A stretch of 32,000 nt of DNA, from NCBI GenBank assembly GCA_016205145.1, contig JACQJH010000002.1, positions 450,001 through 482,000 of the forward strand, written 5' to 3'. The DNA comes from Candidatus Iainarchaeum sp. (GTDB lineage Archaea; Iainarchaeota; Iainarchaeia; Iainarchaeales; JACQJH01). The notes under the pieces are model-generated. The model saw only the letters and a list, made by a program, of their open reading frames with translations. It was not told where the DNA came from and made no database searches. The translations under genes were made by a program, and so were the position numbers. The stretch's first letter is position 1. The number at the start of each line of letters is the position of its first letter. Below are positions 11,442-25,934 of the stretch, one piece after another.

Positions 11442-12560
11442 TCAGGTATTCCCGGCAAGCTTTTCCCACAGCTCGTTTTCGATTGCAAGGCCTTTTCCTG
11501 ACAGGTTTTCTTTTTCCTGCGGGTCGTTTTCAAGGTCGAACAGTTCGCGTTTTTTCAGAGTCGAATTGTAGATGAGTTTCCATTTGCCGGTGCGGATTGA
11601 TTTCACGTTCGGCGCTTTCGGCGAAGGGGTTGGCCCGCCGAGGCCGCCGGTTTCGGAAAACGCAATGCGGTCGCCTTTTTCCCTGCCTTCAACCAATGGC
11701 AGCAGGCTTTCGCCGTCCATTTTTTCAAAGCCGCTTTTTGCGGAAATGCCCAAATATTCGAGAACCGTGGGCATCAGGTCAATCAGGCGCACCTGCGAAG
11801 GGATTTTTTTTGCAGGAAACCTATTGTCGGGCGAAATGAAAAGCATGAACGTCCTGAGCGTGTAGTCATAGCAGAAACTGCCGTAAACTTTTTCCCCGAC
11901 CCTGTCGCCGAGGCCGATGCCGTGGTCGGAGAAAAAAATTATGAGCGAGTTCTTGTCCAGGCCTTTCCGCCGGATGAGCGCCCACATTTCCCTTATGTAA
12001 GCGTCGCAGTCTTTCAGGTACTCGTCGTATTGCCTGACGTTCTTTTCCTTGTTTTCGAACAGCTCGGGTGAAAAGTCATCGAACTTTTTCATGACGTTTT
12101 TAGTGAGAATCTGCCTGATTTCGTCGAACTGGTAGAAAACGAAAAAAGGCTGTTTCGCGTCCGCAAGCCGTTCAAGCATCTGCAAATGCGCGGCTTTCTG
12201 CTTTGCGTCCTTTTCGTAGTCGTGCACCACTGCATTGTCGAATCCCTGGAAGGGCATTATCAGCTTGTTCGCTATTTCGGCTTCTGTGCGGTAGCCTTTT
12301 TCTTTCAGGTATTGCGCTAACGTGAAAACCCTGTCTTTCCTGAATTGCAGGGTGCCGAAATAGTTGTCGACTCCGTTTTTCCTGCCGTTCATGCCGGAAA
12401 GCACTGCATGCATTGAAGGAATGGTTGAAGGCGAATAGGTTATTGAGTTGCCGAAATACGTTCCATTCTGCGCGAGCTTTTTGAATTCAGGCAGAAGCTC
12501 GGTGCGCTCAAGCCTGACACCGTCAAGCAGGATGAGGATTACATTTGGTTTTTCTTGCAT
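11442..12560 (-). CDS. sulfatase-fold (alkaline phosphatase superfamily) hydrolase/transferase, probably not a true sulfatase
   Basis: Contains NVILILLDGVR, FFSDHGIGLGD and IDLMPTVLEYLGI. The nucleophile region reads YSPSTIPSMHAVLSG, so the C/S-x-P-x-R formylglycine motif lacks its Arg. The ATG at 12560 is preferred. Confidence 0.82.
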   Translation of the reverse strand: MQEKPNVILILLDGVRLERTELLPEFKKLAQNGTYFGNSITYSPSTIPSMHAVLSGMNGRKNGVDNYFGTLQFRKDRVFTLAQYLKEKGYRTEAEIANKLIMPFQGFDNAVVHDYEKDAKQKAAHLQMLERLADAKQPFFVFYQFDEIRQILTKNVMKKFDDFSPELFENKEKNVRQYDEYLKDCDAYIREMWALIRRKGLDKNSLIIFFSDHGIGLGDRVGEKVYGSFCYDYTLRTFMLFISPDNRFPAKKIPSQVRLIDLMPTVLEYLGISAKSGFEKMDGESLLPLVEGREKGDRIAFSETGGLGGPTPSPKAPNVKSIRTGKWKLIYNSTLKKRELFDLENDPQEKENLSGKGLAIENELWEKLAGNT

Positions 12561-12653
12561 GCGAACCAACAAAAATTAAGCAAAAAAAGATTTAAAGCGC
12601 ACTATGGCATTTGCGCGCGGGCAGGATTTGGCGGCAACATGTCCGCATTGCCA

Positions 12654-14310: not shown

Positions 14311-14973
14311 TCATTTGCTTTCCGGCCGGCGGTTTTTTTCAACCAGCATTATGGCGAGGTGCTTCAGGAGGGGGTGGATTACGAAAAACGTTTCGCCTTT
14401 TTGCGTGTCCTGCGGGGTTTCCGCGAAAAAGCCTTTTTCGGCAAAGCCCTTCACCGCCTGCACCAGAGTTTCGGCCCTAGCGTGATTGTCGAAGAAATTG
14501 TCGATGTCGGTTGTCTGCGGCAGGCCGAAGCTTTTGCGGCAGACGATGTTGCCCTTGTCGATTCCGTCAGCGAGGAAGAAGGCTGTTGCGCTCACGTCGC
14601 TTTCGGCGATGATGCTGTAATAGAAGCACGTGCTTCCCCTGAAATCCGGCAGCCTTCCCGGATGGACGTGCAGGAATTTTTTTCCGCTGGAAAGCATTTC
14701 CTTGCGTAGAATGCCTCCGCCGGAAAAGATGAAAAAATCCTGGCTTGCGAGTTTCACTGCTTCAACGGTTCCGGGCGAGTTGACGTCATGCGATGGCACT
14801 TCAAAGAAGGGGATTTTGAGTTTTTCAAGCAGTGCCTTTTCTTCCGCGTTGCTTCCTGCCTTTGCCTGCAACAGGACCGCAAATTCCGGCAGGAGTTTGT
14901 TCGCGGCAAGCGCGTTCAGGTAGGCTTTTGCCCTCGGCCCGGGAAAGACGAGAATTGCGAGGTTTTTCACCAA
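14311..14973 (-). CDS. formyltransferase-fold (Formyl_trans_N-like) protein
   Basis: HVHPGRLPDFRG aligns with the HPSLLPxxRG loop, and GIDKGNIV aligns with the DxGxDTGxI loop. The Asn normally two residues before the His is itself His here. The gene overlaps its upstream neighbour by 7 nt. Confidence 0.68.
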   Translation of the reverse strand: MVKNLAILVFPGPRAKAYLNALAANKLLPEFAVLLQAKAGSNAEEKALLEKLKIPFFEVPSHDVNSPGTVEAVKLASQDFFIFSGGGILRKEMLSSGKKFLHVHPGRLPDFRGSTCFYYSIIAESDVSATAFFLADGIDKGNIVCRKSFGLPQTTDIDNFFDNHARAETLVQAVKGFAEKGFFAETPQDTQKGETFFVIHPLLKHLAIMLVEKNRRPESK

Positions 14974-15725
14974 AGCGGAACACCTTTTTCCGGGAAGAGT
15001 TTTTGCGCCAGCTCCTTTTCAAGCAGGAGCGAGGCAAGGCAGAGCTGCGTTTCACGCACGGAAAGTTTTTGCACGTCGAGCGAGCAGATGAAGTCATTGA
15101 GTTTCAGCGCAACGTTCAGGAATTTCAGGTTGCCGGATTTTCCGAAGAACAGAAGGCATGCGAGTGAAAGCGAGGCATAGTGTTCAACGGCGTCAAACTT
15201 GCCCGCCGCTTCCGAAACCCTGAAACCGGCGCGGTATTCCGCGAAAACCTTTTTTGAGACCTCGAAGCTTTTCACGAAACCGGAAAGGCAGATGTAAACT
15301 TTTTTTTCCTCCGCTGCGCCGGCATTCTTATGTCTGCCGGACAGCGCAAGAATGCATGCCGGCAGGGCTTCTTCAGTGCGGATTGCTGCCTGCGGGAACT
15401 GCGTGAAAAAAATTTCGGGCGAAGCGTTGCCGGAAAAAAAGGTTTCCAAGCTTTCCGGCCGGAATGGTTTGGCCTTTTCCCCGGAATTTTTTTCAAGCGC
15501 GGCAATCATGCCTTTCCGCGCATGCACGAACGCATCGAGAAAAGCTTTGCCTTCAAACTTTGAAAACGAGTATTCGGGCGGCTGTTCAAGCCAGCCTTTT
15601 TTCGCGAAAGCGTAGGCAAGCATTGGCAAGAATAAGCCCGCAAAAGCTTTTTTAACTGCGCAATGCAAAAAAGCAAAAAGCCTGATTCGGGCGGCAAAAG
15701 GCAAAATAAGCCGTTTTTGGGGCAT
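14967..15725 (-). CDS. hypothetical protein, first gene of the minus-strand operon
   Basis: This is the C-terminal roughly 250 aa of the 484-aa track ORF and has protein-like composition. The rest of that ORF is antisense to the 1000-aa plus-strand gene. The ATG at 15725 lies 26 nt from a TATA-like box. I recognise no family. Confidence 0.5.
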   Translation of the reverse strand: MPQKRLILPFAARIRLFAFLHCAVKKAFAGLFLPMLAYAFAKKGWLEQPPEYSFSKFEGKAFLDAFVHARKGMIAALEKNSGEKAKPFRPESLETFFSGNASPEIFFTQFPQAAIRTEEALPACILALSGRHKNAGAAEEKKVYICLSGFVKSFEVSKKVFAEYRAGFRVSEAAGKFDAVEHYASLSLACLLFFGKSGNLKFLNVALKLNDFICSLDVQKLSVRETQLCLASLLLEKELAQKLFPEKGVPLW

Positions 15726-15803: not shown

Positions 15804-18800
15804 ATGAAGCAGAAGATTTGGATAAACAAGAGCAACGGCCAGCTTTGCGTGACCGTGCCCAAGGACTCGGGCATGAGGGACGGGATGTTTGTCGACATCA
15901 GGCAGGCCAAAATCGAAAAAGTTGTTTACACTTCGGTTGTCGCGGACCTGTTTCATTACGGCATACTCAACCTGCTGAAGACCGCGCAGGCAATGGGCGA
16001 CATGCACGTCTGCGGCGTGCAGACGGACGGGGCGGCGGAACAGTACAGGGGAAAACCAGTCACTTCCCTGAAGGAACGCCTGGCAGTAATCCAGAGCCTC
16101 AACTGCGTCGACCGCGCCGTGGTGCAGAAAAGCCCGGACCCCACTGAAAATTTGCAGAAACTGCACGACGAATTTCCGGGCGCGGAAATCATACTCGTTT
16201 ACGGTTCCAACTGGAAGCAGGTGCCCGGCAAGGATTTTGTCGAAAGCATCCGCGGAAAGGTGGTGCAGCCGGAATTTTACGACAAGCTGTCGGAGCCGAA
16301 AATCTATTCCTCGCTTGCGGAAAAGTACAGGCAGGCTTACGGCGATTTCAGCGATTTTACCGAAAGGTTCAGGGTAAAAAACGTGGTTTATTTCGACGAC
16401 AAGGATGACAAATCCGGGCACATCATTTCAACCAAGGCGGATACGCTGCGCGCGCTCCAGCCCGCGCTGAGGCATTCGCGCATAGAAAAAACTTTCGTGT
16501 TCACGGAACAGGAATGGGAGCGGTCGCCTGGACAGGTCGTAAGGGAAATCGCAAAGGAATTCTCGGAAGGCAGGATTGTCGTGAGAAGCTCGGCCGTCAA
16601 CGAGGATTCATTGCACAGGTCCGCTGCAGGCCATTACCACAGCGAACTCAACGTCAACCCGAAAAATGTCAAGCAGACCGAAGCCGCCATAGAAAAAGTG
16701 GTGAAATCCTATTCCGAAAAGGGCGACAAGAATCCGGAAAACCAGGTTCTGGTGCAGAGCCAGGCGAAAAACGTGAAAATGAGCGGCGTGATTTTCACGC
16801 GCGAAATCGGGTCGAATGCGCCGTATTACACCATAAACTTCGATGACACCACTGACAGCACTGACAGGGTCACAAAGGGCGAGGAAACCAAAGCAGTGAG
16901 GATTTCAAGGTTTTTGCCTGCGCGCGATTTTCCGCAGAAATGGTACAAATTGCTCACGGCAGTGCAGGAAATAGAATCCGTGATACCGGAAATACCGCTG
17001 GACATAGAGTTTGCCGTCGACTCGGATGAAAACGTAATAATTTTCCAGGCAAGGCCGCTGGCGGCAAACGCCACTCTCGGCACCAAGAAGGACAAAATCG
17101 TGGAAGACGCAATTGCATCGGGAAAGGCGGGCGTTGCAATGCTGTTGAAACCGCAACCGCACCTCTGCGGAAAAACCGATGTCCTGAGCGACATGTCGGA
17201 CTGGAATCCGGCTGAATTGCTTGGCGACAGAACGAAACCGCTGGACTATTCGCTTTTCAGGCTGCTGATAAGCGATGGCGTCTGGCACAAGGCGAGGGAA
17301 AGCCTCGGCTACTGGAAATTCCCGGAAGACGAGGATTTGTGCCATTGCATTGCCAACAAGCCTTTTGTCAGCGCAAGAAACAGCTTCAACTCATTCTGCC
17401 CTGAAAGCCTTGCGAAAGGCGTGAAAGAAAAGCTCTGCCAGTTCAGCCTGCATAAGCTTTCACGGCAGCCGGAACTGCATGACAAGGTCGAATTCGAAGT
17501 CTATTACACGTGCCACGACCTTGGCTTCGCGAAAAGAAGCGCGGAACTGCTCGAAGAAGGATTTTCGCAGGCCGAAGTCGGCAGGCTAAAGGAAAGCCTT
17601 GCCGAACTGACAAACGCAATCGTGGCGAACCACGAAAAAACAATCTCGGATGACATGGCTGACGCGGAAAAAATGGGCAAAAAACGGGAAGCGGTTCTCG
17701 CAAGGGCCGCGAAGGAAAAGGACGCGTTCAGGCTTATCGGCTTGGCGGGCGAACTGCTTGCTGACTGCAGGGAACTTGGCACGCTGCAGTTCTCGAGGCT
17801 TGCGCGCATGGCGTTCATTGCAAAAGCCAACCTGAAGGCGCTTGCGGCAGAAAAACTCATGTCGCAAGAGCAATACAACGATTTCCTGAATTCGATTGAA
17901 ACCGTGGCAACGGAACTGAACCGGGACTTCGTTTCACTGCTTGAAGGCAAAACCCCGAAGGACGAATTCCTTAAAAAATACGGGCACCTGAGGCCGGGAA
18001 CATTCGACATCACGGCAACGCGCTACGACAAAAATCCATCGCTCATAAGCGACGCGGGAAACGCCGCGAAAAACGCGTTCGCGGCCGAAAAGAAAAAATT
18101 TTCAATCGATGAAAAGGCGCTCCGCAAAATTTCGGAAAGGCTGGAGGCGGATTGCCTGAAATTCTCTGCGGAAACGCTTTTCGCTTTCGCGCGCAAAAGC
18201 ATCGAGGCGAGGGAAAAATCCAAGTTCGAGTTCACGAAAAACCTGAGCGCGGGCCTTGAACTTGTTGCGGAGGCCGGCGAGAAACTGGGGTTCACTAGAA
18301 AGGAAATGTCGTACCTTGAAATTGCCGAAATCACCGTGAAGGCGAAGGAAACCGCTGCGGAAAAAACCAAATCGGATTGGAAGAAAAAAATCGCGGACAG
18401 GCAGTTCGAGGAGGAAGCGTTCAGCCTTCTCAGCCTGCCGCCGCTGCTGTTCTCGCCGCTCGACATTGAAATCGTGCCAAGCTATGTGGCAAGGCCCAAC
18501 TACATCACTGGCAAAAGGATTGCCGCCGAACTGTTCCATTTGTACAAGTTTGGCAGGGATTCGGTCTTCGACCTGTCCGGAAAAATCGTCGCGCTTGAAA
18601 ACGCCGACCCGGGCTACGACTGGATTTTCACGAAAAATCCGGCAGGCCTTGTCACGAAATACGGCGGGGTTTCATCGCACATGTCAATCCGCTGCGCCGA
18701 ATTCGGCATTCCCGCGGCAATCGGGTGCGGCGAACTGTTGTTCGAAAAAATCAGGAAAGCTGAAAGGATTTCATTGGATTGCAGGGCGAAAAGCGTGTCG

Positions 18801-18806
18801 TTCTGA
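15804..18806 (+). CDS. multidomain PEP-utilising-family kinase: AbrB-like, cytidylyltransferase-like, PPDK-type ATP-grasp and phosphohistidine swivel domains (candidate glutamine-kinase-like enzyme)
   Basis: The N-terminus KIWINKSNGQLCVTVPKDSGMRDGMFVDI looks AbrB/SpoVT-like. The TagD-like block is VVYTSVVADLFHYGILNLLKTAQAMGD...VCGVQTDG...ERLAVIQSLNCVD. The PPDK_N signature is VVRSSAVNEDSLHRSAAGHYHSELNV. The C-terminus GYDWIF...KYGGVSSHMSIRCAEFGIPAAIGCG is a mobile His domain. There is no PEP/pyruvate TIM-barrel domain. Confidence 0.85.
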   Translation: MKQKIWINKSNGQLCVTVPKDSGMRDGMFVDIRQAKIEKVVYTSVVADLFHYGILNLLKTAQAMGDMHVCGVQTDGAAEQYRGKPVTSLKERLAVIQSLNCVDRAVVQKSPDPTENLQKLHDEFPGAEIILVYGSNWKQVPGKDFVESIRGKVVQPEFYDKLSEPKIYSSLAEKYRQAYGDFSDFTERFRVKNVVYFDDKDDKSGHIISTKADTLRALQPALRHSRIEKTFVFTEQEWERSPGQVVREIAKEFSEGRIVVRSSAVNEDSLHRSAAGHYHSELNVNPKNVKQTEAAIEKVVKSYSEKGDKNPENQVLVQSQAKNVKMSGVIFTREIGSNAPYYTINFDDTTDSTDRVTKGEETKAVRISRFLPARDFPQKWYKLLTAVQEIESVIPEIPLDIEFAVDSDENVIIFQARPLAANATLGTKKDKIVEDAIASGKAGVAMLLKPQPHLCGKTDVLSDMSDWNPAELLGDRTKPLDYSLFRLLISDGVWHKARESLGYWKFPEDEDLCHCIANKPFVSARNSFNSFCPESLAKGVKEKLCQFSLHKLSRQPELHDKVEFEVYYTCHDLGFAKRSAELLEEGFSQAEVGRLKESLAELTNAIVANHEKTISDDMADAEKMGKKREAVLARAAKEKDAFRLIGLAGELLADCRELGTLQFSRLARMAFIAKANLKALAAEKLMSQEQYNDFLNSIETVATELNRDFVSLLEGKTPKDEFLKKYGHLRPGTFDITATRYDKNPSLISDAGNAAKNAFAAEKKKFSIDEKALRKISERLEADCLKFSAETLFAFARKSIEAREKSKFEFTKNLSAGLELVAEAGEKLGFTRKEMSYLEIAEITVKAKETAAEKTKSDWKKKIADRQFEEEAFSLLSLPPLLFSPLDIEIVPSYVARPNYITGKRIAAELFHLYKFGRDSVFDLSGKIVALENADPGYDWIFTKNPAGLVTKYGGVSSHMSIRCAEFGIPAAIGCGELLFEKIRKAERISLDCRAKSVSF

Positions 18807-18811
18807 AAAAA

Positions 18812-18823
18812 AAAGATTTAATG
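18812..18823 (+). promoter_or_regulatory. TATA-like box (AAAGATTTAATG)
   Basis: Centred about 25 nt upstream of the GTG at 18843. It resembles AAAGATTTAAAG at 12587-12598. Confidence 0.3.
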
Positions 18824-18842
18824 CCATTGCATGGAATAATGT

Positions 18843-19559
18843 GTGAAACCGATGATTTCAGCGCACTTGAGGAACCTTGCAAGAATTCGCGGGAAAATTG
18901 CATCCGGGGAACCTGTAAAAATCGGGGTTTTTTGTTCCGGCAACAGCGGAAGGTCGCCTCTTGCGGAACACGCACTGCGCGCCGAATTGCAGGCGCTGGG
19001 AATTCCCGCCGAGGTTTTTTCCTTCGGGGTCAGCGTTACGCCTTCAAGAATCATACCGACAAATGCGGGTGCATCTGAAAGGACAATAGCTTATGGCGTG
19101 GAGCACGGCTATGCTGAAATTGCAGGACACCAGCGCACTTACGTTGACGATGCAAAAAGGGACATTGCCCAAGCTGACCTGCTTTTGGGAATAAGCCCGG
19201 AGCACAGCGCAACGCTTGTGCGCAGCATAGTTGACGGCGAATCGAATCCAGGGTCGAAGGAGGCGCAGCAGAGGATTGCAGAAAGGCTTGCGCGCATCTG
19301 GACCCTTAAAGGCTTTGCCAACAGAACCGACTGGCAGGGCGCATTCGAGCCACTTGTTCGGGCGATCGCAGGAGGGGTTTCACAGAAGCGCGCTGTGCAG
19401 AACCCGGATTCTTTGCCGAAAACGCCTGAAGGAGATGCGGAATACTTGCGGATAATGCAGGACATTGAAAGAACCGCAAAAAGGGCCGCGCGAAGAATTG
19501 CCGGAAAACGCGGAAAGCCGGCAAGACCACACAGCGCGCAGCATGGTGGACGACGGTGA
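18843..19559 (+). CDS. low-molecular-weight phosphotyrosine phosphatase / ArsC-fold protein
   Basis: The P-loop VFCSGNSGRSP matches C-x5-R-S. A basic C-terminal tail is present. The start is either the GTG at 18843 or the ATG at 18852. Confidence 0.72.
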   Translation: MKPMISAHLRNLARIRGKIASGEPVKIGVFCSGNSGRSPLAEHALRAELQALGIPAEVFSFGVSVTPSRIIPTNAGASERTIAYGVEHGYAEIAGHQRTYVDDAKRDIAQADLLLGISPEHSATLVRSIVDGESNPGSKEAQQRIAERLARIWTLKGFANRTDWQGAFEPLVRAIAGGVSQKRAVQNPDSLPKTPEGDAEYLRIMQDIERTAKRAARRIAGKRGKPARPHSAQHGGRR

Positions 19560-20257
19560 AAAAAATGATTTGCCTTATTTCGCAACGAAGGAACCAGAAC
19601 AGGTACGGCGCGTATCTGGACGCGCTTGAAACCTCTTACGTGACTTTTTTCGAGGGCCTGGGCGTTTCGCTTGTTCCAGTTTCAAATGAAAGCGTGCGCG
19701 TCAGGAAAATGTTCGACGAATTCAAGGCGCATGGTGTCATACTGACCGGCGGGGAAAACGTCGATTCAAAGGTTTTCGGCGAACCGCCAATCAACCCGGC
19801 CGGCATCGCGGTTGAGCGCGACGCCGTTGAAAAAATACTTGTCGGGGAAGCAATGAAAAGGAAGCTGCCGGTGCTTGGCATTTGCAGGGGCCTGCAGTTT
19901 TTGAACGTGCATTTCGGCGGCAGGCTCTCGCAAAGCGTCAAGGAAGAGTTTGGCGGCCATGCCGGAACGCAGCATGAAATCATGGTCGTTGACGCAGGCT
20001 TTGAAAAATATCTCGGCAGGAAAACCCTGCGGGTCAATTCTTTCCACAACCAGGGCGTGCCGGAAAAGCTCTTGTCAAAGGAGCTTAGGGCGTTTGCGAT
20101 GACCGAAAACGGGCTTGTGGAGGGCTTTTACCATCCTGCAAAAGCCGTGCTTGCAGTGCAATGGCACCCTGAAAGGAAAAGCCCGGATGTTGAGGCAAAC
20201 GAAAAGATTGCCGGAATTTTTTTGGAAAAAAAGTTTTTCTGGCTTGACCGGAAGTGA
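19556..20257 (+). CDS. class I glutamine amidotransferase-like / peptidase C26 gamma-glutamyl hydrolase
   Basis: Nucleophile elbow LGICRGLQFLN and His-Glu pair VQWHPER. The gene overlaps the upstream stop (GTGA). An alternative ATG lies at 19565. Confidence 0.85.
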   Translation: MKKMICLISQRRNQNRYGAYLDALETSYVTFFEGLGVSLVPVSNESVRVRKMFDEFKAHGVILTGGENVDSKVFGEPPINPAGIAVERDAVEKILVGEAMKRKLPVLGICRGLQFLNVHFGGRLSQSVKEEFGGHAGTQHEIMVVDAGFEKYLGRKTLRVNSFHNQGVPEKLLSKELRAFAMTENGLVEGFYHPAKAVLAVQWHPERKSPDVEANEKIAGIFLEKKFFWLDRK

Positions 20258-20278
20258 AATTGGAAAAATGGCGGTGCT

Positions 20279-21076
20279 ATGGTGAAAGCAATCATTCTTG
20301 CGGCAGGCATGGGAACAAGGCTGAGCAAATACACCAAGGATTTGCCTAAAGGCATGCTTGATTTCATGGGAAAGCCGCTTGTCAAATGGCAGGTTGACGT
20401 TTACAAAAAAATGGGCGTCGACGACGTCATTGTCATAAGGGGTTTTGCCGCAGACAAAATAAATTTTTCCGGTGTCAGGTACTATGAGAACAAGGATTTT
20501 GCCAACACGAACATGGTCGAAACATTGTTCTGCGCTGAAAAGGAACTTGAAGGAGAAGTGCTCGTTTCCTATGCCGATGTTTTGTTCGAACCGAAGGTTT
20601 TGAAGAAGGTTCTTGACTCGAACGCCGACATCGGTGTCACGGTCGACCTCGCATGGAAGGACTACTGGACCGCAAGGCTCGGCTCTTTCGAACTGGACAC
20701 TGAAAGCCTGGGCTTTGACGACAGCGGCGCGATAACCGGGCTTGGAACGGACAGCCCGCCGATTGAAGAGATTGACGGAAGGTATGTCGGCCTGCTGAAG
20801 TTCTCGAAAAAAGGCGTTGAGCAGGCCAGGAAGGTCTACCATGCGGGCAGGAAAGGCTTTCTGGGAAAGCCCTGGGGGCCGTCCGGAAAGGTTTTCCAGA
20901 AGGCTTACATGACGGATCTGCTGAACAAGTGCATTGAAGCCGGAAACCGGGTTGAAGCAATAAGGATCGAGCGCGGCTGGCTCGAATTCGACACCAACGG
21001 GGATTACGAGAAAATGATGCAATTGGAAAAGGCAGGCGGGCTCAAAAGGTTTTTCGATTTGAATGCCTTGAAATGA
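20279..21076 (+). CDS. LicC-like nucleotidyltransferase (candidate cytidylyltransferase)
   Basis: N-terminal KAIILAAGMGTRLSKYTKDLPKGML, followed by YADVLF, VDLAWKDYW, YVGLLKFS and AYMTDLL blocks. These are typical of phospho-headgroup (choline / 2-AEP / phosphoglutamine) cytidylyltransferases. Confidence 0.82.
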   Translation: MVKAIILAAGMGTRLSKYTKDLPKGMLDFMGKPLVKWQVDVYKKMGVDDVIVIRGFAADKINFSGVRYYENKDFANTNMVETLFCAEKELEGEVLVSYADVLFEPKVLKKVLDSNADIGVTVDLAWKDYWTARLGSFELDTESLGFDDSGAITGLGTDSPPIEEIDGRYVGLLKFSKKGVEQARKVYHAGRKGFLGKPWGPSGKVFQKAYMTDLLNKCIEAGNRVEAIRIERGWLEFDTNGDYEKMMQLEKAGGLKRFFDLNALK

Positions 21077-21118: not shown

Positions 21119-22252
21119 CTACGAAAGCGATTTGAAAAGCCGCAGGTACTTGTCAACGGTTTTTTCGATTGTGAAATTTTCAAGCACGCGCGCCCTGCCT
21201 TTTTTTCCCAAACGCCCGGCTTTTTTTTCGTCAAGCAGCAGTTCCCGCACTGCTTCCGTGAACTGGAGAGTGCTGCCGGTTTCGCAAAGTATGCCGGCAT
21301 CCCCCACAACTCCGGGGATTGCCGCGGTGTTTGACGCCACAACCGGCTTTCCGCAGGCCATTCCCTCCGCAAGAATCGTGCCGAATGTTTCGTAATAGCT
21401 CGGGTGCAGGATAATGTCGCACTGATTGAGCAGTGCAGGGAGTTCCGGGTGCGGAACGCGCGGCAAGGCAATCACATCCGTTCCGAGGCGGATCGCGTTC
21501 TGTTCCAGTTTTTTCCGGAATTTTTCAAAATCGCTTCCCGCTGCAATCATGCGCAGTTCAGGAAAATCCTTCCGCAGGCTTATGAACGCGTCAACTGCTA
21601 TGTGCGCGCCTTTCCTGAAGCTGTGCCCTCCGCTGAAAAAAATTGTTTTGCGCTTGCGGCCGGCCGCATTGCCTCCGGGCGAGAATTCTTTTGTGTCCAC
21701 GCCGTTCGGAATGACCGTTATGGGCTTTCCGGAGAGCTTTTGCGTCTGCGCTTTTTCGCTTTCGCTGGGCACGACTATTTGCGTGCAATTTTTCATCGCC
21801 ATGTTTTCGAAGAAAATGCGCGAATTGTCCTTGAGCCTGTCGAAAGCAGGCTGTTCATTGTTGCCGAGACCGCCGGCAAACCTTTGCAGCAGCATTTTGG
21901 AGGAGAAAACGCGCGGCGTTTCCGAGAAATGCTTTTCAAGCTTGAACAGCAGTGCGCCTTCAATGTCCTGCGAGTTGATTATGCCTGGTTTTTCCCTGCG
22001 GAGAACGGAAAGGCCTTTGAGGGCCAGAGGAAAAGTGCGCAGCCGGAAATCGTCGTGCGGAACGGATAGCGCCCTGAAAACCCTGATTCCGCCAACGTCG
22101 TCATTGGCGGGGCGCTTCGGGCTGCCGTTGGCGAGCACGAAAACTTCCGCTTTTTCCGCCACGCCCCTGACGATGTTGTGGATGGTCGGATAGGCGCCGA
22201 AGGACATTTTTTCCTTTTCATAGAAGAAGCTTGAAACGAAGCAGACTTTCAT
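21119..22252 (-). CDS. GT-B glycosyltransferase (glycosyl transferases group 1 / CAZy GT4-like)
   Basis: The C-terminal region reads HPSYYETFGTILAEGMACGKPVVASNTAAIPGVVGD (E-x7-E region). The ATG at 22252 (MKVCFVSSFF) is preferred. Confidence 0.85.
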   Translation of the reverse strand: MKVCFVSSFFYEKEKMSFGAYPTIHNIVRGVAEKAEVFVLANGSPKRPANDDVGGIRVFRALSVPHDDFRLRTFPLALKGLSVLRREKPGIINSQDIEGALLFKLEKHFSETPRVFSSKMLLQRFAGGLGNNEQPAFDRLKDNSRIFFENMAMKNCTQIVVPSESEKAQTQKLSGKPITVIPNGVDTKEFSPGGNAAGRKRKTIFFSGGHSFRKGAHIAVDAFISLRKDFPELRMIAAGSDFEKFRKKLEQNAIRLGTDVIALPRVPHPELPALLNQCDIILHPSYYETFGTILAEGMACGKPVVASNTAAIPGVVGDAGILCETGSTLQFTEAVRELLLDEKKAGRLGKKGRARVLENFTIEKTVDKYLRLFKSLS

Positions 22253-22275
22253 CGGAAAGACTAATGGGTTTTTGG

Positions 22276-22285
22276 CAATATTATT
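22276..22285 (-). promoter_or_regulatory. TATA-like box (AATAATATTG on the minus strand)
   Basis: Centred about 29 nt upstream of the ATG at 22252. Confidence 0.35.
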
Positions 22286-22518
22286 CTTGCGGTGCAAACA
22301 CCGGAATAACCTATACATAATGAATTTGGCTTTTGTCGGCTGCGGGCAACCCGGATGAACGGCGGGGGAGGGTCAGGAGTTCCCTAGAACTGGGGAGGGG
22401 GCAAAACCCCCTCCGCGGTTCGGAATAAAACCTTTTTAAATGTTTAACCCGAATAGATGTAGTAATCGAAGCTGATTTTTGTCATGCTTTTCCGCCTTTG
22501 GGCAAATAGTGGTTTTTC

Positions 22519-23387: not shown

Positions 23388-25934
23388 TTGGTTGTGGCTG
23401 AAAAAAGCAGGGACATTCTCTGGTTTGCGGACGGCTCACGCTCGGACATACCTGTTCTTGGAGGCAAGGGCGCGAACCTCGCAGAAATGACTAATGCGGA
23501 CTTCCCGGTTCCGAACGGCTTTGTGGTGACGTCGCAGGCCTATTTCAAGTTTTTGGACGAAACCGGAATCAGGCAGCAGGTCGTGAAGCTTGCCGACTCC
23601 ATAGATGTCGATGACACTGCGAGGCTTGAAAGGACTGCCGAACAGATAAGGACAATCGTCAAAAACACGCCCATGTCCGAGGCGCTCAAAATCGGCATCC
23701 GGAAAGCGTACAGGCAGCTCAGCGAAAAAAAGATTGCGTGGATGAACAGTTCCGAACCCGCACTCGTTGCGGTCAGGAGTTCCGCCACGGCTGAAGATCT
23801 TCCGACCGCCAGTTTTGCGGGCCAGCAGGAAACCTACCTGAACATCCAAGGCGACCTGAGCCTGCTCAAGGCCGTGCAGAACTGCTGGGCTTCGCTGTTT
23901 ACGGCGCGCGCAGTCTATTACAGGAAAAAGCAGGGCTTTTCAACGCAGAAAGTAGGCATTGCGGTTGTCGTGCAAAAAATGGTTGAGTCCGACCAGTCGG
24001 GCATAATGTTCACTGCCGACCCTCTTGGCGACAGGTCAAAGATTGTTGTGGAGGCCTGCTTCGGCCTGGGCGAGGCGATTGTCAGCGGCAGCATCACGCC
24101 CGACACTTTCACTTTGGACAAGGAGAGCCTTGACATTCTTGACAGGAAAATCTCCTACCAGGCATGGATGCTGAAAAAGTCTGGCAGGGACAACATGAAA
24201 ATCGCGCTCGACAAGGCGAAAGGCGGAAGGCAGAAAGTGCCGGACGAAACGATCCAGAAAATCGCGGAACTCGGAAGGGAAATTGAAGACCATTACAACG
24301 CGCCGCAGGACATCGAATGGGCAATCGAGGGCGGAAAGATTTTCATTGTGCAGAGCCGCGCAATAACTACATTGGGCCTGGAGAAAAAGGTTGCTGCAGA
24401 AGAAACCAGGGAAAAGTCCGGCGACGCTTCCGGAAAAATCATTGTGAAGGGCCTGGCGGCTTCGCCCGGCATCGCCTCCGGAAAAGTCAAAATCGTGCCC
24501 GACGCAAGGGACGTTGAACTGGTCGGCAAAGGCGACATTCTTGTGACTGTCATGACGAACCCGGACTGGGTGCCGGTGATGCGCAAAAGCTCTGCGATTG
24601 TCACTGATGAAGGCGGAGTGACGTGTCATGCCGCAATAGTGAGCAGGGAACTCGGCATTCCATGCGTTGTAGGCGCAGGCAACGCGACATCCGTGCTGAG
24701 GAATGGAATGATTGTTACCGTGAACGGCTTTGCGGGAACAGTGCTTGAAGGCAGGGCAATTGTTCAACCGGCGCCCCAGAAAGCCGGATTCAAAAAGCCG
24801 CTGTTCGACCAAAGCGAAGTCGACGATTTTGAAAAAGCGTTGGAGGAAAAGATTGCCGCGCTGCATGCAAAGGCCAGGCAAAAAAAATCCGGGGCATTGC
24901 AGGCAAGGGAAAAAGCCGGGCTTGAAGGTGTGGAAAAGCAGGCAGGAAAATTGCTTGGAGAATTCGGAAAAATCGAAGCGGAAAAAATGCCTGAAAAGGC
25001 GCTTGTAAAAGAGGAAGCACTGCTGGAGGGCGTGCTGAGGAAAGCCGCGATCAGCGTGAAAGTGAATGTCGCATTGCCCGACGCTGCTGAAAGGGCTGCC
25101 CAGACCAACGCTGATGGGGTGGGGCTGCTGAGGGCCGAGCATATGATTACGGCGTCAGGAAAGCATCCCGCGGAATTCATCCGCGAGGGAAAAGAAAAAG
25201 AGTTGAAGGAAGCTGTCAAGGAAGGCATACTGAGGGTTGCCTCCGCTTTCAGGGGAAAGCCTGTTTGGTACAGGACATTTGACGCGCGCACCGACGAGTT
25301 CAAGGAACTGGATGGCGGGGACAAGGAACCGGAAGAGGAAAACCCTATGATCGGATGGCATGGCATTCGCCGCGATCTGGACGAGCCGGAACTCCTGAAG
25401 GCGCAGTTTTTGGCGATAAAGGAATTGCGCGAAGAAGGCTACGCGAATGTGGGGGTGATGCTGCCGTTCGTCATAAGGGCAGAAGAAGTGAGAAAGGCGA
25501 AAGAGATTGCGCAAAGCGTGGGCCTTCCTGCGGATGAAATGGAGTTTGGAGTGATGATTGAAACACCGGCGGCGGCGTGGACGATTGACGAGATTATCGG
25601 GGAAGGCATTGCGTTTGTGAGTTTTGGCACAAACGATCTTACACAACTCACTCTAGGCATCGACCGCAACAACGGCAAAATCCAGAAGCTTTTCTCCGAA
25701 CTTCATCCCGCTATTCTCAGGCAGCTGGAATTCGTGATAAAAAAGTGCTCTGCGGCCGGCGTCAAAACCTCGATCTGCGGCCAGGCCGCAAGCAACCCGG
25801 AAATGGTGAAAAAGCTCATCAGGATGGGCATCGGCTCGGTTTCCGCGAACATCGACGCAGTCGAAGAGATTAGGAAGATTGCAATGCTTGAGGAGAAAAA
25901 CCTGATTCTTGAAAAAAGCCGCAAAAATCAGTAA
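23388..25934 (+). CDS. ppsA: phosphoenolpyruvate synthase (pyruvate, water dikinase)
   Basis: Contains ILWF...GGKGANLAEM, VRSSATAEDLPTASFAGQQETYLN, the phosphohistidine motif GGVTCHAAIVSRELGIP, and the C-terminal TIM-barrel motifs GVGLLRAEHM and SFGTNDLTQ. The start must be non-AUG (TTG 23388 or GTG 23394). Confidence 0.92.
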   Translation: MVVAEKSRDILWFADGSRSDIPVLGGKGANLAEMTNADFPVPNGFVVTSQAYFKFLDETGIRQQVVKLADSIDVDDTARLERTAEQIRTIVKNTPMSEALKIGIRKAYRQLSEKKIAWMNSSEPALVAVRSSATAEDLPTASFAGQQETYLNIQGDLSLLKAVQNCWASLFTARAVYYRKKQGFSTQKVGIAVVVQKMVESDQSGIMFTADPLGDRSKIVVEACFGLGEAIVSGSITPDTFTLDKESLDILDRKISYQAWMLKKSGRDNMKIALDKAKGGRQKVPDETIQKIAELGREIEDHYNAPQDIEWAIEGGKIFIVQSRAITTLGLEKKVAAEETREKSGDASGKIIVKGLAASPGIASGKVKIVPDARDVELVGKGDILVTVMTNPDWVPVMRKSSAIVTDEGGVTCHAAIVSRELGIPCVVGAGNATSVLRNGMIVTVNGFAGTVLEGRAIVQPAPQKAGFKKPLFDQSEVDDFEKALEEKIAALHAKARQKKSGALQAREKAGLEGVEKQAGKLLGEFGKIEAEKMPEKALVKEEALLEGVLRKAAISVKVNVALPDAAERAAQTNADGVGLLRAEHMITASGKHPAEFIREGKEKELKEAVKEGILRVASAFRGKPVWYRTFDARTDEFKELDGGDKEPEEENPMIGWHGIRRDLDEPELLKAQFLAIKELREEGYANVGVMLPFVIRAEEVRKAKEIAQSVGLPADEMEFGVMIETPAAAWTIDEIIGEGIAFVSFGTNDLTQLTLGIDRNNGKIQKLFSELHPAILRQLEFVIKKCSAAGVKTSICGQAASNPEMVKKLIRMGIGSVSANIDAVEEIRKIAMLEEKNLILEKSRKNQ

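Follow-up and report, generated by a model that had tools for sequence, protein, structure and literature searches.

A candidate DPANN variant of the Campylobacter jejuni nucleoside-diphosphoramidate pathway

Introduction

What might an archaeon make with an operon whose products resemble the enzymes that Campylobacter jejuni uses to build the O-methyl phosphoramidate (MeOPN) decoration of its capsule? The question is raised by positions 15804-21076 of a 32,000-nucleotide stretch of contig JACQJH010000002.1 from Candidatus Iainarchaeum sp., a DPANN archaeon; this whole stretch is hereafter the window. In C. jejuni, where the pathway genes have been established genetically and biochemically, Cj1418 is the L-glutamine kinase, Cj1416 the CTP:phosphoglutamine cytidylyltransferase, Cj1417 the gamma-glutamyl-CDP-amidate hydrolase and Cj1415 the cytidine diphosphoramidate kinase (CTP and CDP, cytidine tri- and diphosphate). 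According to a 2019 review, phosphoramidate (P-N) sugar decoration is found only in Campylobacter. CDP-glutamine has been studied only in vitro. Here we argue, from the family membership of the proteins and the linkage of their genes, that the locus probably encodes a DPANN version of this nucleoside-diphosphoramidate pathway, a reading to which we give a probability of roughly 0.6.

Results

An archaeal operon of four genes

The operon consists of four co-oriented, close-packed open reading frames (ORFs) on the + strand, just as a first-pass annotation made from the sequence alone had described it:

15804-18806, + strand: kinase-family protein, 1000 aa
18843-19559, + strand: divergent protein with the fold of the low-molecular-weight protein tyrosine phosphatases (LMW-PTP), 238 aa (gene callers' start at 18852); PF01451 (LMWPc), 29.2 bits against a cut-off of 23.2
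19556-20257, + strand: hydrolase of the peptidase C26/class-I amidotransferase fold, 233 aa (alternative start at 19565); PF07722, 135 bits
20279-21076, + strand: LicC-like nucleotidyltransferase, 265 aa; PF12804 (NTP_transf_3), 49.6 bits

Successive genes are separated by a 36 bp gap, a 4-bp overlap and a 21 bp gap. The kinase polypeptide is 100% identical to HY394_05740 from a metagenome-assembled genome (MAG) of Candidatus Diapherotrites (DPANN), and elsewhere in the window lie archaeal housekeeping genes for topoisomerase VI, RIO kinase, eRF1, L10e, diphthamide synthase and TruD; together these confirm that the locus is archaeal and chromosomal. A scan of the operon for promoters and terminators gave no excess over shuffled sequences, and is uninformative for an archaeon since its models are bacterial.

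Domains were assigned with Pfam, families with NCBIfam models and their cut-offs, and solved relatives by sequence search of the PDB. When one genome per species was scanned, at least 550 genomes, archaeal as well as bacterial, were found to encode a relative of the kinase. The best 80 loci, of which none is from Campylobacter, were kept with 10-kb flanks and, with several more that were fetched, form a comparison set of 85 non-redundant loci (33 archaeal and 52 bacterial), to which the counts below refer.

The large protein belongs to the L-glutamine kinase family

Three regions can be distinguished in the first protein of the operon, and a complete phosphoenolpyruvate (PEP) synthase encoded nearby provides an internal contrast to it:

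15804-15911, + strand: N-terminal stub of ~36 residues resembling, as judged by eye, half of an AbrB/SpoVT swapped-hairpin (KIWINKSNGQLCVTVPKDSGMRDGMFVDI)
15912-16328, + strand: CTP_transf_like domain of the HxGH class, residues ~37-175; PF01467, 32.7 bits
16413-18806, + strand: phosphotransferase region of the glutamine kinase family, with an ATP-grasp domain, a helical middle and a swivel domain bearing His959 (GGVSSH959MS)
23388-25934: canonical complete PpsA with PPDK_N (352 bits), a swivel domain and PEP-utilizers_C (262 bits), 2.3 kb downstream of the operon and past the gene for ribosomal protein L10e

Pfam recognizes PF01326 (PPDK_N), PF27448 and PF00391 (PEP-utilizers) in the kinase region, and an Rph_4th helical domain is likewise detected in the protein. 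Both PpsA and the rifampin phosphotransferase Rph share the ATP-grasp and the phosphohistidine swivel domain with it; however, unlike PpsA, it lacks the PEP/pyruvate-binding barrel, PEP-utilizers_C (PF02896) being absent in the Pfam scan. The family-level assignment is clear-cut: NF004508 (PRK05849) scores 820.8 bits against a cut-off of 501, with residues 204-1001 covering model positions 5-786 of 789, while the models for PEP synthase, prodigiosin ligase and rifampin phosphotransferase reach 29-56 bits. The protein thus falls neither with bona fide PEP synthases nor with antibiotic phosphotransferases. His959 is invariant in an alignment of 18 sequences (A1), as are the ATP-grasp residues, and IMG gives the name 'glutamine kinase' to four DPANN homologues that are 44-47% identical to the window protein. 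A literature search under the name PRK05849 found no paper. These comparisons support the placement of the large protein in the L-glutamine kinase family (PRK05849) rather than with PpsA or Rph.

The first-pass annotation had described this protein as keeping only the ATP-grasp and swivel domains, which is right with regard to the missing PEP barrel but passes over the CTP_transf_like domain and the AbrB-like stub. The stub is common to many DPANN homologues in A1 and has no Pfam match. The best PDB matches of the CTP_transf_like domain are human ethanolamine-phosphate cytidylyltransferase (ECT, 3elb) and the CyTase domain of Fom1 (5x3d). In place of the intact HxGH of PF01467-class cytidylyltransferases it has H51-Y-G-I54; HxGH is kept in 98 of 104 homologues, and HxGI occurs in the window protein and P0002 only. 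A decaying relic was considered and rejected: against P0002, the nearest relative, the domain is the best-conserved part of the protein (88.5% identity, versus 77% for the ATP-grasp domain and 72.5% for the middle region), which indicates constraint and not decay. Conservation is lowest in the substrate-binding middle (identity of 45% to P0004, and of 72.5% even to the 78%-identical relative). The fused domain is present in 28 of the 33 archaeal and 17 of the 52 bacterial loci, nearly always alongside a stand-alone LicC-like transferase. The 'new fusions' of the first-pass annotation are thus not peculiar to this locus: the joining of cytidylyltransferase and kinase is the standard DPANN form and is carried by more than 100 protein clusters. 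We propose that the fused domain acts as an auxiliary second module for nucleotide binding or nucleotidyl transfer.

A candidate hydrolase and a candidate cytidylyltransferase

In the C26 protein the catalytic triad is intact, as had been noted at first sight: Cys110 (GIC110RG), His204 and Glu206 (WH204PE206) align with the triad of SpuA (7d4r). Its top NCBIfam match is NF045546, the gamma-glutamyl-CDP-amidate hydrolase (GCDPHdlase), with 77.1 bits; PuuD follows with 61 bits. C26 proteins linked to the kinase elsewhere score similarly against NF045546 (107.6 bits in Leptospira and 67 bits in Bifidobacterium), and the window protein shares 30% identity, from end to end, with the C26 protein of a cluster in Azospirillum. 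We regard it as a candidate gamma-glutamyl-CDP-amidate hydrolase of the Cj1417 type.

The nucleotidyltransferase displays the motif AAGMGTRL at residues 8-15 (G10-M-G-T-R-L) together with K24. Its best solved relatives are LicC (1jyk, E 8e-15), with the similarity mainly over residues 2-104, and then PntC (6pd1), while sugar-1-phosphate enzymes match it over the N-terminal nucleotide loop only (residues 3-120); it therefore groups with LicC/PntC and not with the sugar-1-phosphate nucleotidyltransferases. An NCBIfam scan of its C-terminal half gave no match. The Azospirillum cluster can serve as a proxy for Cj1416: its transferase and the window enzyme have 30% full-length identity. LicC and PntC are CTP:phosphocholine and phosphonate cytidylyltransferases, respectively, which activate small phospho-headgroups with CTP; by contrast, the substrate of the window enzyme would presumably be N-phospho-glutamine. 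In Nitrosopumilus (L036) and Leptospira (L037) the kinase has no fused cytidylyltransferase domain and the LicC-like enzyme is the only transferase of the locus. Because such loci possess the LicC-like enzyme alone, we assign the Cj1416 role to it instead of to the fused domain, making it the candidate CTP:phosphoglutamine cytidylyltransferase.

Gene linkage and fusions across related loci

The same genes recur together well beyond the window. Of the 85 loci, 78 have a C26 gene on the kinase strand and no more than 3 kb away (archaeal, 31 of 33; bacterial, 47 of 52), and 52 have a nucleotidyltransferase of the window type placed likewise (25 archaeal and 27 bacterial); loci without a linked C26 or nucleotidyltransferase gene are mostly interrupted by contig ends. 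With NF045546 as the top family and this degree of synteny, the C26 protein is set apart from a generic gamma-glutamyl-GABA hydrolase in an accidental neighbourhood. Uncultured archaea and bacteria commonly carry the trio, and it is the standard arrangement in Woesearchaeota-type DPANN archaea. Hence, the core of the first-pass interpretation, a Cj1418/Cj1417/Cj1416-type trio for a CDP-activated phospho-headgroup, likely a phosphoramidate donor, is supported by family scores as well as linkage.

The linkage is reinforced by domain fusions, which imply functional coupling of the parts. The kinase and C26 domains form a single ORF in 16 loci, all from gut Firmicutes or Bacteroides (L049-L052, L054, L055, L057, L061, L065-L067, L072, L073, L079, L081 and L085). 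An NTP_transf_3/LicC-like (NT3) domain of ~250 residues is fused to the kinase N-terminus in five loci (L058, L059, L060, L062 and L078); its G-x-G-T-R-L loop is degenerate at least in L060, and a strong stand-alone NT3 match is also present in all of these but L058. In P0056, a single protein of 1143 residues, a kinase for adenosine 5'-phosphosulfate (APS) is combined with a cytidylyltransferase-like domain and the glutamine-kinase-type region. Cj1415 of C. jejuni has the same APS-kinase fold.

Several observations accompany these fusions. Two unrelated nucleotidyltransferase folds, the HxGH-class and the NT3/LicC-like, occupy the same N-terminal position of the kinase. The gut kinase-C26 fusions are ~1020-1050 residues long and have no nucleotidyltransferase nearby, their neighbours being housekeeping genes (for UPRTase, a ZIP transporter and PspA); they point to a different, possibly nucleotide-free, use of N-phospho-glutamine. 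Four contigs from IMG/VR, which include one GVMAG giant-virus bin (L093-L096), encode relatives of the kinase with 28-49% identity.

Two bacterial loci have full Cj1415-1420-like sets. In Leptospira (L037) the order is methyltransferase, APS-kinase, unkA (an all-helical protein described below), formyltransferase-like, kinase, sulfotransferase-like, C26, transferase and O-antigen ABC exporter, while an Azospirillum plasmid combines the kinase, C26 and transferase genes with two methyltransferases and an adenylyl-sulfate kinase. Across the set, an APS-kinase-like gene is found in 18 of 85 loci only, so that a 3'-phosphorylated donor, as used by C. jejuni, may not be a universal feature. Flippase, GT2/GT4 glycosyltransferase and TagF-like genes around the module in other loci provide a surface-glycan setting; genes for TagF-like Glyphos_transf/CDP-glycerol glycerophosphotransferases adjoin the trio in L005, L006 and a Vibrio plasmid.

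Genes for sulfate activation also recur beside the kinase clusters of DPANN archaea and on the Vibrio plasmid, either as ATP sulfurylase (often with a HIT-family protein) or as CysD/CysN, with the APS kinase often absent. They lie at the following positions of the respective loci:

L003, 17055-19119
L004, 14798-16512
L006, 14991-16745
L088, 6600-9385
L097, 4496-6901

Sulfation encoded at the same place is one possible explanation; another is a route to a different P-N nucleotide that depends on adenylyl sulfate.

Flanking genes

The glycosyltransferase and alkaline-phosphatase-superfamily genes that had been noted beside the operon were recovered with Pfam, together with a further pair of genes:

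11442-12572, - strand: 'Sulfatase'-family protein of the alkaline-phosphatase superfamily; PF00884, 97 bits
12654-14300, - strand: type I phosphodiesterase/nucleotide pyrophosphatase family protein of the alkaline-phosphatase superfamily; PF01663, 95 bits
14311-14973, - strand: formyltransferase-fold protein; PF00551, 29 bits; H102-V-H104-PG and D139
14967-15623, - strand: unkA, all-helical partner protein, divergent from the operon
21119-22318, - strand: GT4 glycosyltransferase, convergent with the operon; PF00534 and PF13439

The formyltransferase-like/unkA pair is a conserved partner of the kinase cluster: the unkA family occurs in 22 kinase loci from both domains of life, each time beside a formyltransferase-like gene, and the two are fused in four loci (the pair was observed at L010, L016, L026 and L080, among others). 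In the formyltransferase-like family H102, H104 and D139 are invariant, and its profile matches Fmt and sugar N-formyltransferases with E-values of 1e-10 to 1e-7. For unkA neither Pfam, NCBIfam nor the PDB, including a PDB profile search, gave a match; its AlphaFold2 model (all-helical, mean confidence, pLDDT, of 75.6) likewise found no match in a Foldseek search of the PDB (best E 0.41).

In the 'Sulfatase'-family protein the nucleophile position, aligned by eye, is a Thr (SPST50IPSM) and the C/S-x-P-x-R formylglycine motif is not present. Its kinase-linked homologues, including that of Nitrosopumilus, have P-[YS]-T/S-x-x-S and are likewise without the formylglycine motif. We accordingly rejected this neighbour as a sign of sulfation: it is probably a phosphoryl transferase or hydrolase and no sulfatase. 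The family recurs in eight of the 33 archaeal loci; the phosphodiesterase-family gene has the same position in L087 and is present in L004 as well. We suggest that the two alkaline-phosphatase-superfamily proteins may transfer the headgroup or trim it. A GT4 gene is present in 11 of the 33 archaeal loci.

The lack of a Cj1415-like kinase, remarked upon at the outset, holds for the whole 32-kb window: tblastn with three APS-kinase queries gave nothing better than E > 0.3, and Pfam scans found none. Likewise, the 32 kb hold no methyltransferase dependent on S-adenosylmethionine of the Cj1419/Cj1420 type, which is common in relatives, no sulfotransferase-like gene of the kind seen in L037 and L088, and, in the Pfam scans, no TagF-like or LicD-like gene. 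Hidden versions of the Cj1415-like kinase, methyltransferase and sulfotransferase, as well as HIT, ATP sulfurylase and CysQ, were checked for in the window and rejected.

The LMW-PTP-like gene is a lineage-specific insertion

The fold of the second gene product is as originally named: the P-loop, C31-SGNSG-R37-S, conforms to C-x5-R-S. At the position of the general-acid Asp, where its subfamily relatives have DP[YHF], the window protein has N187-P-D189 (aligned by eye), with an Asp two residues on, and it bears a basic C-terminal tail. Its inclusion in the system did not survive comparison, and we rejected it as a core pathway component: the gene is absent from L087 and from all 85 other loci, the 78%-identical relative among them; in that relative the C26 gene directly overlaps the kinase stop with no LMW-PTP gene between. 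It is therefore a recent, lineage-specific insertion outside the conserved system.

The subfamily is small. A word-indexed search of 5.8 billion proteins returned the query itself only, while HMMER, run exhaustively over 1.84 billion representatives, recovered about 10 relatives at E < 1e-10. A single-sequence AlphaFold model of the protein was unusable (pLDDT 47). In three of five contexts the LMW-PTP-like gene directly adjoins a gene for a PEP-utilizers swivel domain: in the window, in L091 (1081-1707), where it starts 4 bp past a gene whose product ends in this domain, and in L101 (1181-1807), where it lies between a swivel-domain gene and one for a stand-alone swivel protein of 106 residues. 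Of the other two, one lies between the genes for aspartate kinase and aspartate-semialdehyde dehydrogenase and the other has uninformative neighbours. A distant match of 1679 residues combines PEP-utilizers, PPDK_N and five LMWPc domains in one protein. The three contexts and this fusion suggest a dedicated partnership of the LMW-PTP-like fold with swivel-His enzymes.

The arginine phosphatase YwlE and the PTS (phosphotransferase system) component EIIB(Cel) share the C-x5-R-S P-loop fold with the window protein. The bond that YwlE cuts is N-P, and EIIB receives phosphate on its cysteine, via histidines, from a PTS enzyme of the PEP-utilizer family. The window protein differs from both in its weak similarity (29 bits), the Asn at the general-acid position and the basic tail. 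We consider it most likely that the subfamily acts on the swivel-domain phosphohistidine, whether by dephosphorylating it or by taking over its phosphate on a cysteine. Alternatively, the gene could have landed here by chance and encode an ordinary arsenate reductase or protein phosphatase (for tyrosine or arginine) with no role in the pathway. This would agree with its absence from every related locus, in which the pathway must work without it, and with the family member between the two aspartate-pathway genes; given that three of five independent contexts adjoin a swivel-domain gene and that the 1679-residue fusion exists, we hold this to be possible but the less likely explanation.

Discussion

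A proposed pathway and its alternatives

Combining these assignments, we propose the following sequence of reactions. The ATP-grasp domain would use ATP to phosphorylate the swivel His959, from which the phosphate would pass to the amide nitrogen of glutamine. The LicC-like enzyme would then convert N-phospho-glutamine and CTP to CDP-L-glutamine, and the C26 hydrolase (Cys110/His204/Glu206) would release glutamate to leave cytidine diphosphoramidate. As the window contains neither a Cj1415-type 3'-kinase nor a methyltransferase, the donor would probably be used without 3'-phosphorylation and the group would not be O-methylated. The phospho-nitrogen group might be modified by the formyltransferase-like/unkA pair and then be attached to a glycan or lipid of the cell surface that the neighbouring GT4 assembles, with the two Thr-type alkaline-phosphatase-superfamily proteins as candidate transferases. 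The LMW-PTP-like protein would be a late add-on acting on the swivel phosphohistidine.

Four points weigh against this scheme. First, the C26 protein, at 77 bits, is below the equivalog cut-off of 250 and 16 bits above PuuD. Second, the Cj1415-like kinase, the methyltransferases and a sulfotransferase-like transferase were not found in the 32-kb window, which means that the late steps either differ from those of the known pathway or are encoded elsewhere in the genome. Third, the locus has two nucleotidyltransferase modules, of which the fused one, with HYGI for HxGH, is unexplained. Finally, the membership of Cj1418 itself in NF004508 is a presumption, for which the IMG names of the homologues speak.

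Some of the same points favour a different substrate. The kinases of the archaeal clade might phosphorylate an alcohol, an amine or an amide other than glutamine; a different CDP-linked headgroup would result, and the C26 protein would cleave some other gamma-glutamyl conjugate. The low conservation of the substrate-binding middle region and the sub-threshold C26 score are in line with this. The locus also has a second, fused transferase domain and a formyltransferase-like pair, which hint that its chemistry extends past that of C. jejuni. However, the whole kinase region matches one equivalog-type model end to end with 821 bits, and a gamma-glutamyl hydrolase as partner is most sensible if the nitrogen arrives on glutamine; we therefore view a different substrate as unlikely.

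Slightly less likely again, in our estimate, is that the trio activates a phospho-amino-acid headgroup which is transferred intact, as phosphoglutamine from CDP-glutamine or from another CDP-amino acid, with the C26 protein doing no more than trimming or proofreading. A TagF-like phosphotransferase has been proven to use CDP-threonine as its donor, and CDP-N-methylthreonine has such a part in the flagellin glycans of Clostridioides difficile; both nucleotidyltransferase modules of the window resemble small-headgroup cytidylyltransferases, and TagF-like genes lie beside the trio in the three loci named above. Nevertheless, the near-universal linkage and frequent fusion of kinase and C26 argue that removal of glutamate is integral to the pathway, and the window has neither a TagF-like nor a LicD-like gene.

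A chance assembly of ordinary metabolic genes (a PEP synthase paralogue, a glutamine amidotransferase subunit, a sugar-1-phosphate nucleotidyltransferase and a tyrosine phosphatase), as the generic PGAP names of the bacterial copies might suggest, is effectively excluded by synteny, namely the linkage in 78 of 85 loci and the fusions, and is at odds with the barrel-less kinase next to a complete PpsA and with the confinement of the sugar-1-phosphate matches to residues 3-120.

Relation to known systems

On the preferred reading as a nucleoside-diphosphoramidate pathway, the locus is a variant of a known system whose core is familiar, in a host that is not, with several accessories still to be explained. 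As in the MeOPN locus of C. jejuni, genes of the three enzyme families lie side by side in one orientation within a surface-polysaccharide context: a barrel-less kinase with ATP-grasp and swivel His, a C26 hydrolase with Cys-His-Glu and an NTP_transf_3 transferase of ~260 residues. The differences lie in the archaeal host, in the extra HxGH-class domain (HYGI) and AbrB-like stub at the N-terminus of the window kinase, and in the lack of a Cj1415-type kinase and of Cj1419/1420-type methyltransferases; conversely, the window adds the formyltransferase-like/unkA pair, the Thr-type alkaline-phosphatase-superfamily proteins and the LMW-PTP-like protein. The C. difficile FtaABCD system (CDP-threonine/CDP-N-methylthreonine) likewise places a CDP-activated, amino-acid-derived headgroup on a surface glycan, as proposed here; there, however, a TagF-like enzyme transfers the intact donor, and neither an ATP-grasp/swivel kinase nor a C26 hydrolase is involved.

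The closest archaeal parallel is an MeOPN-like cluster proposed from structure prediction for genes 308-311 of the Cobalt Borg, an element of Methanoperedens (bioRxiv 10.1101/2024.11.05.622173). Compared by description, it too is an archaeal-associated combination of a glutamine kinase, a CDP-glutamine hydrolase and phosphoglutamine cytidylyltransferase(s) with two modules of the cytidylyltransferase type; in the Borg a PEP mutase, and in the window the kinase, is the fusion partner of the second transferase. The Borg is carried outside the chromosome of a methanotroph; the window locus lies on the chromosome of a DPANN archaeon. With this 2024 preprint and the IMG name 'glutamine kinase' on DPANN homologues, the initial belief that archaea had no described pathway of this kind no longer holds. 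The Borg preprint is the only archaeal mention in the searchable literature, and we found nothing on DPANN archaea. The PGAP labels on the bacterial copies are generic ('PEP-utilizing enzyme', 'gamma-glutamyl-GABA hydrolase family' and 'phosphocholine cytidylyltransferase family'). Since archaeal occurrence was hinted at by the preprint and by automated annotation, what the window contributes is a variant and no new principle.

Implications

A wider combined reading can be put forward, although we think it doubtful as a whole: P-N groups would occur in the envelopes of many DPANN archaea and of hundreds of mostly uncultured lineages, made independently of Cj1415 at this locus, and the LMW-PTP-like subfamily would be a partner of swivel domains. 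Its first part would be the direct use of cytidine diphosphoramidate, perhaps N-acylated by the formyltransferase-like/unkA proteins and delivered by the Thr-type alkaline-phosphatase-superfamily transferases. Its second part would make the LMW-PTP-like protein an unrecognised phosphohistidine phosphatase or a His-to-Cys phospho-relay for enzymes of the PEP-utilizer type. The locus offers three testable handles: a kinase with a built-in second domain of the nucleotidyltransferase type, the formyltransferase-like/helical pair and an LMW-PTP-like protein that tracks swivel domains. If the pathway proposed for the trio is right, P-N surface chemistry would be widespread, and would bear on how ultra-small episymbiotic archaea present their surface to their hosts.

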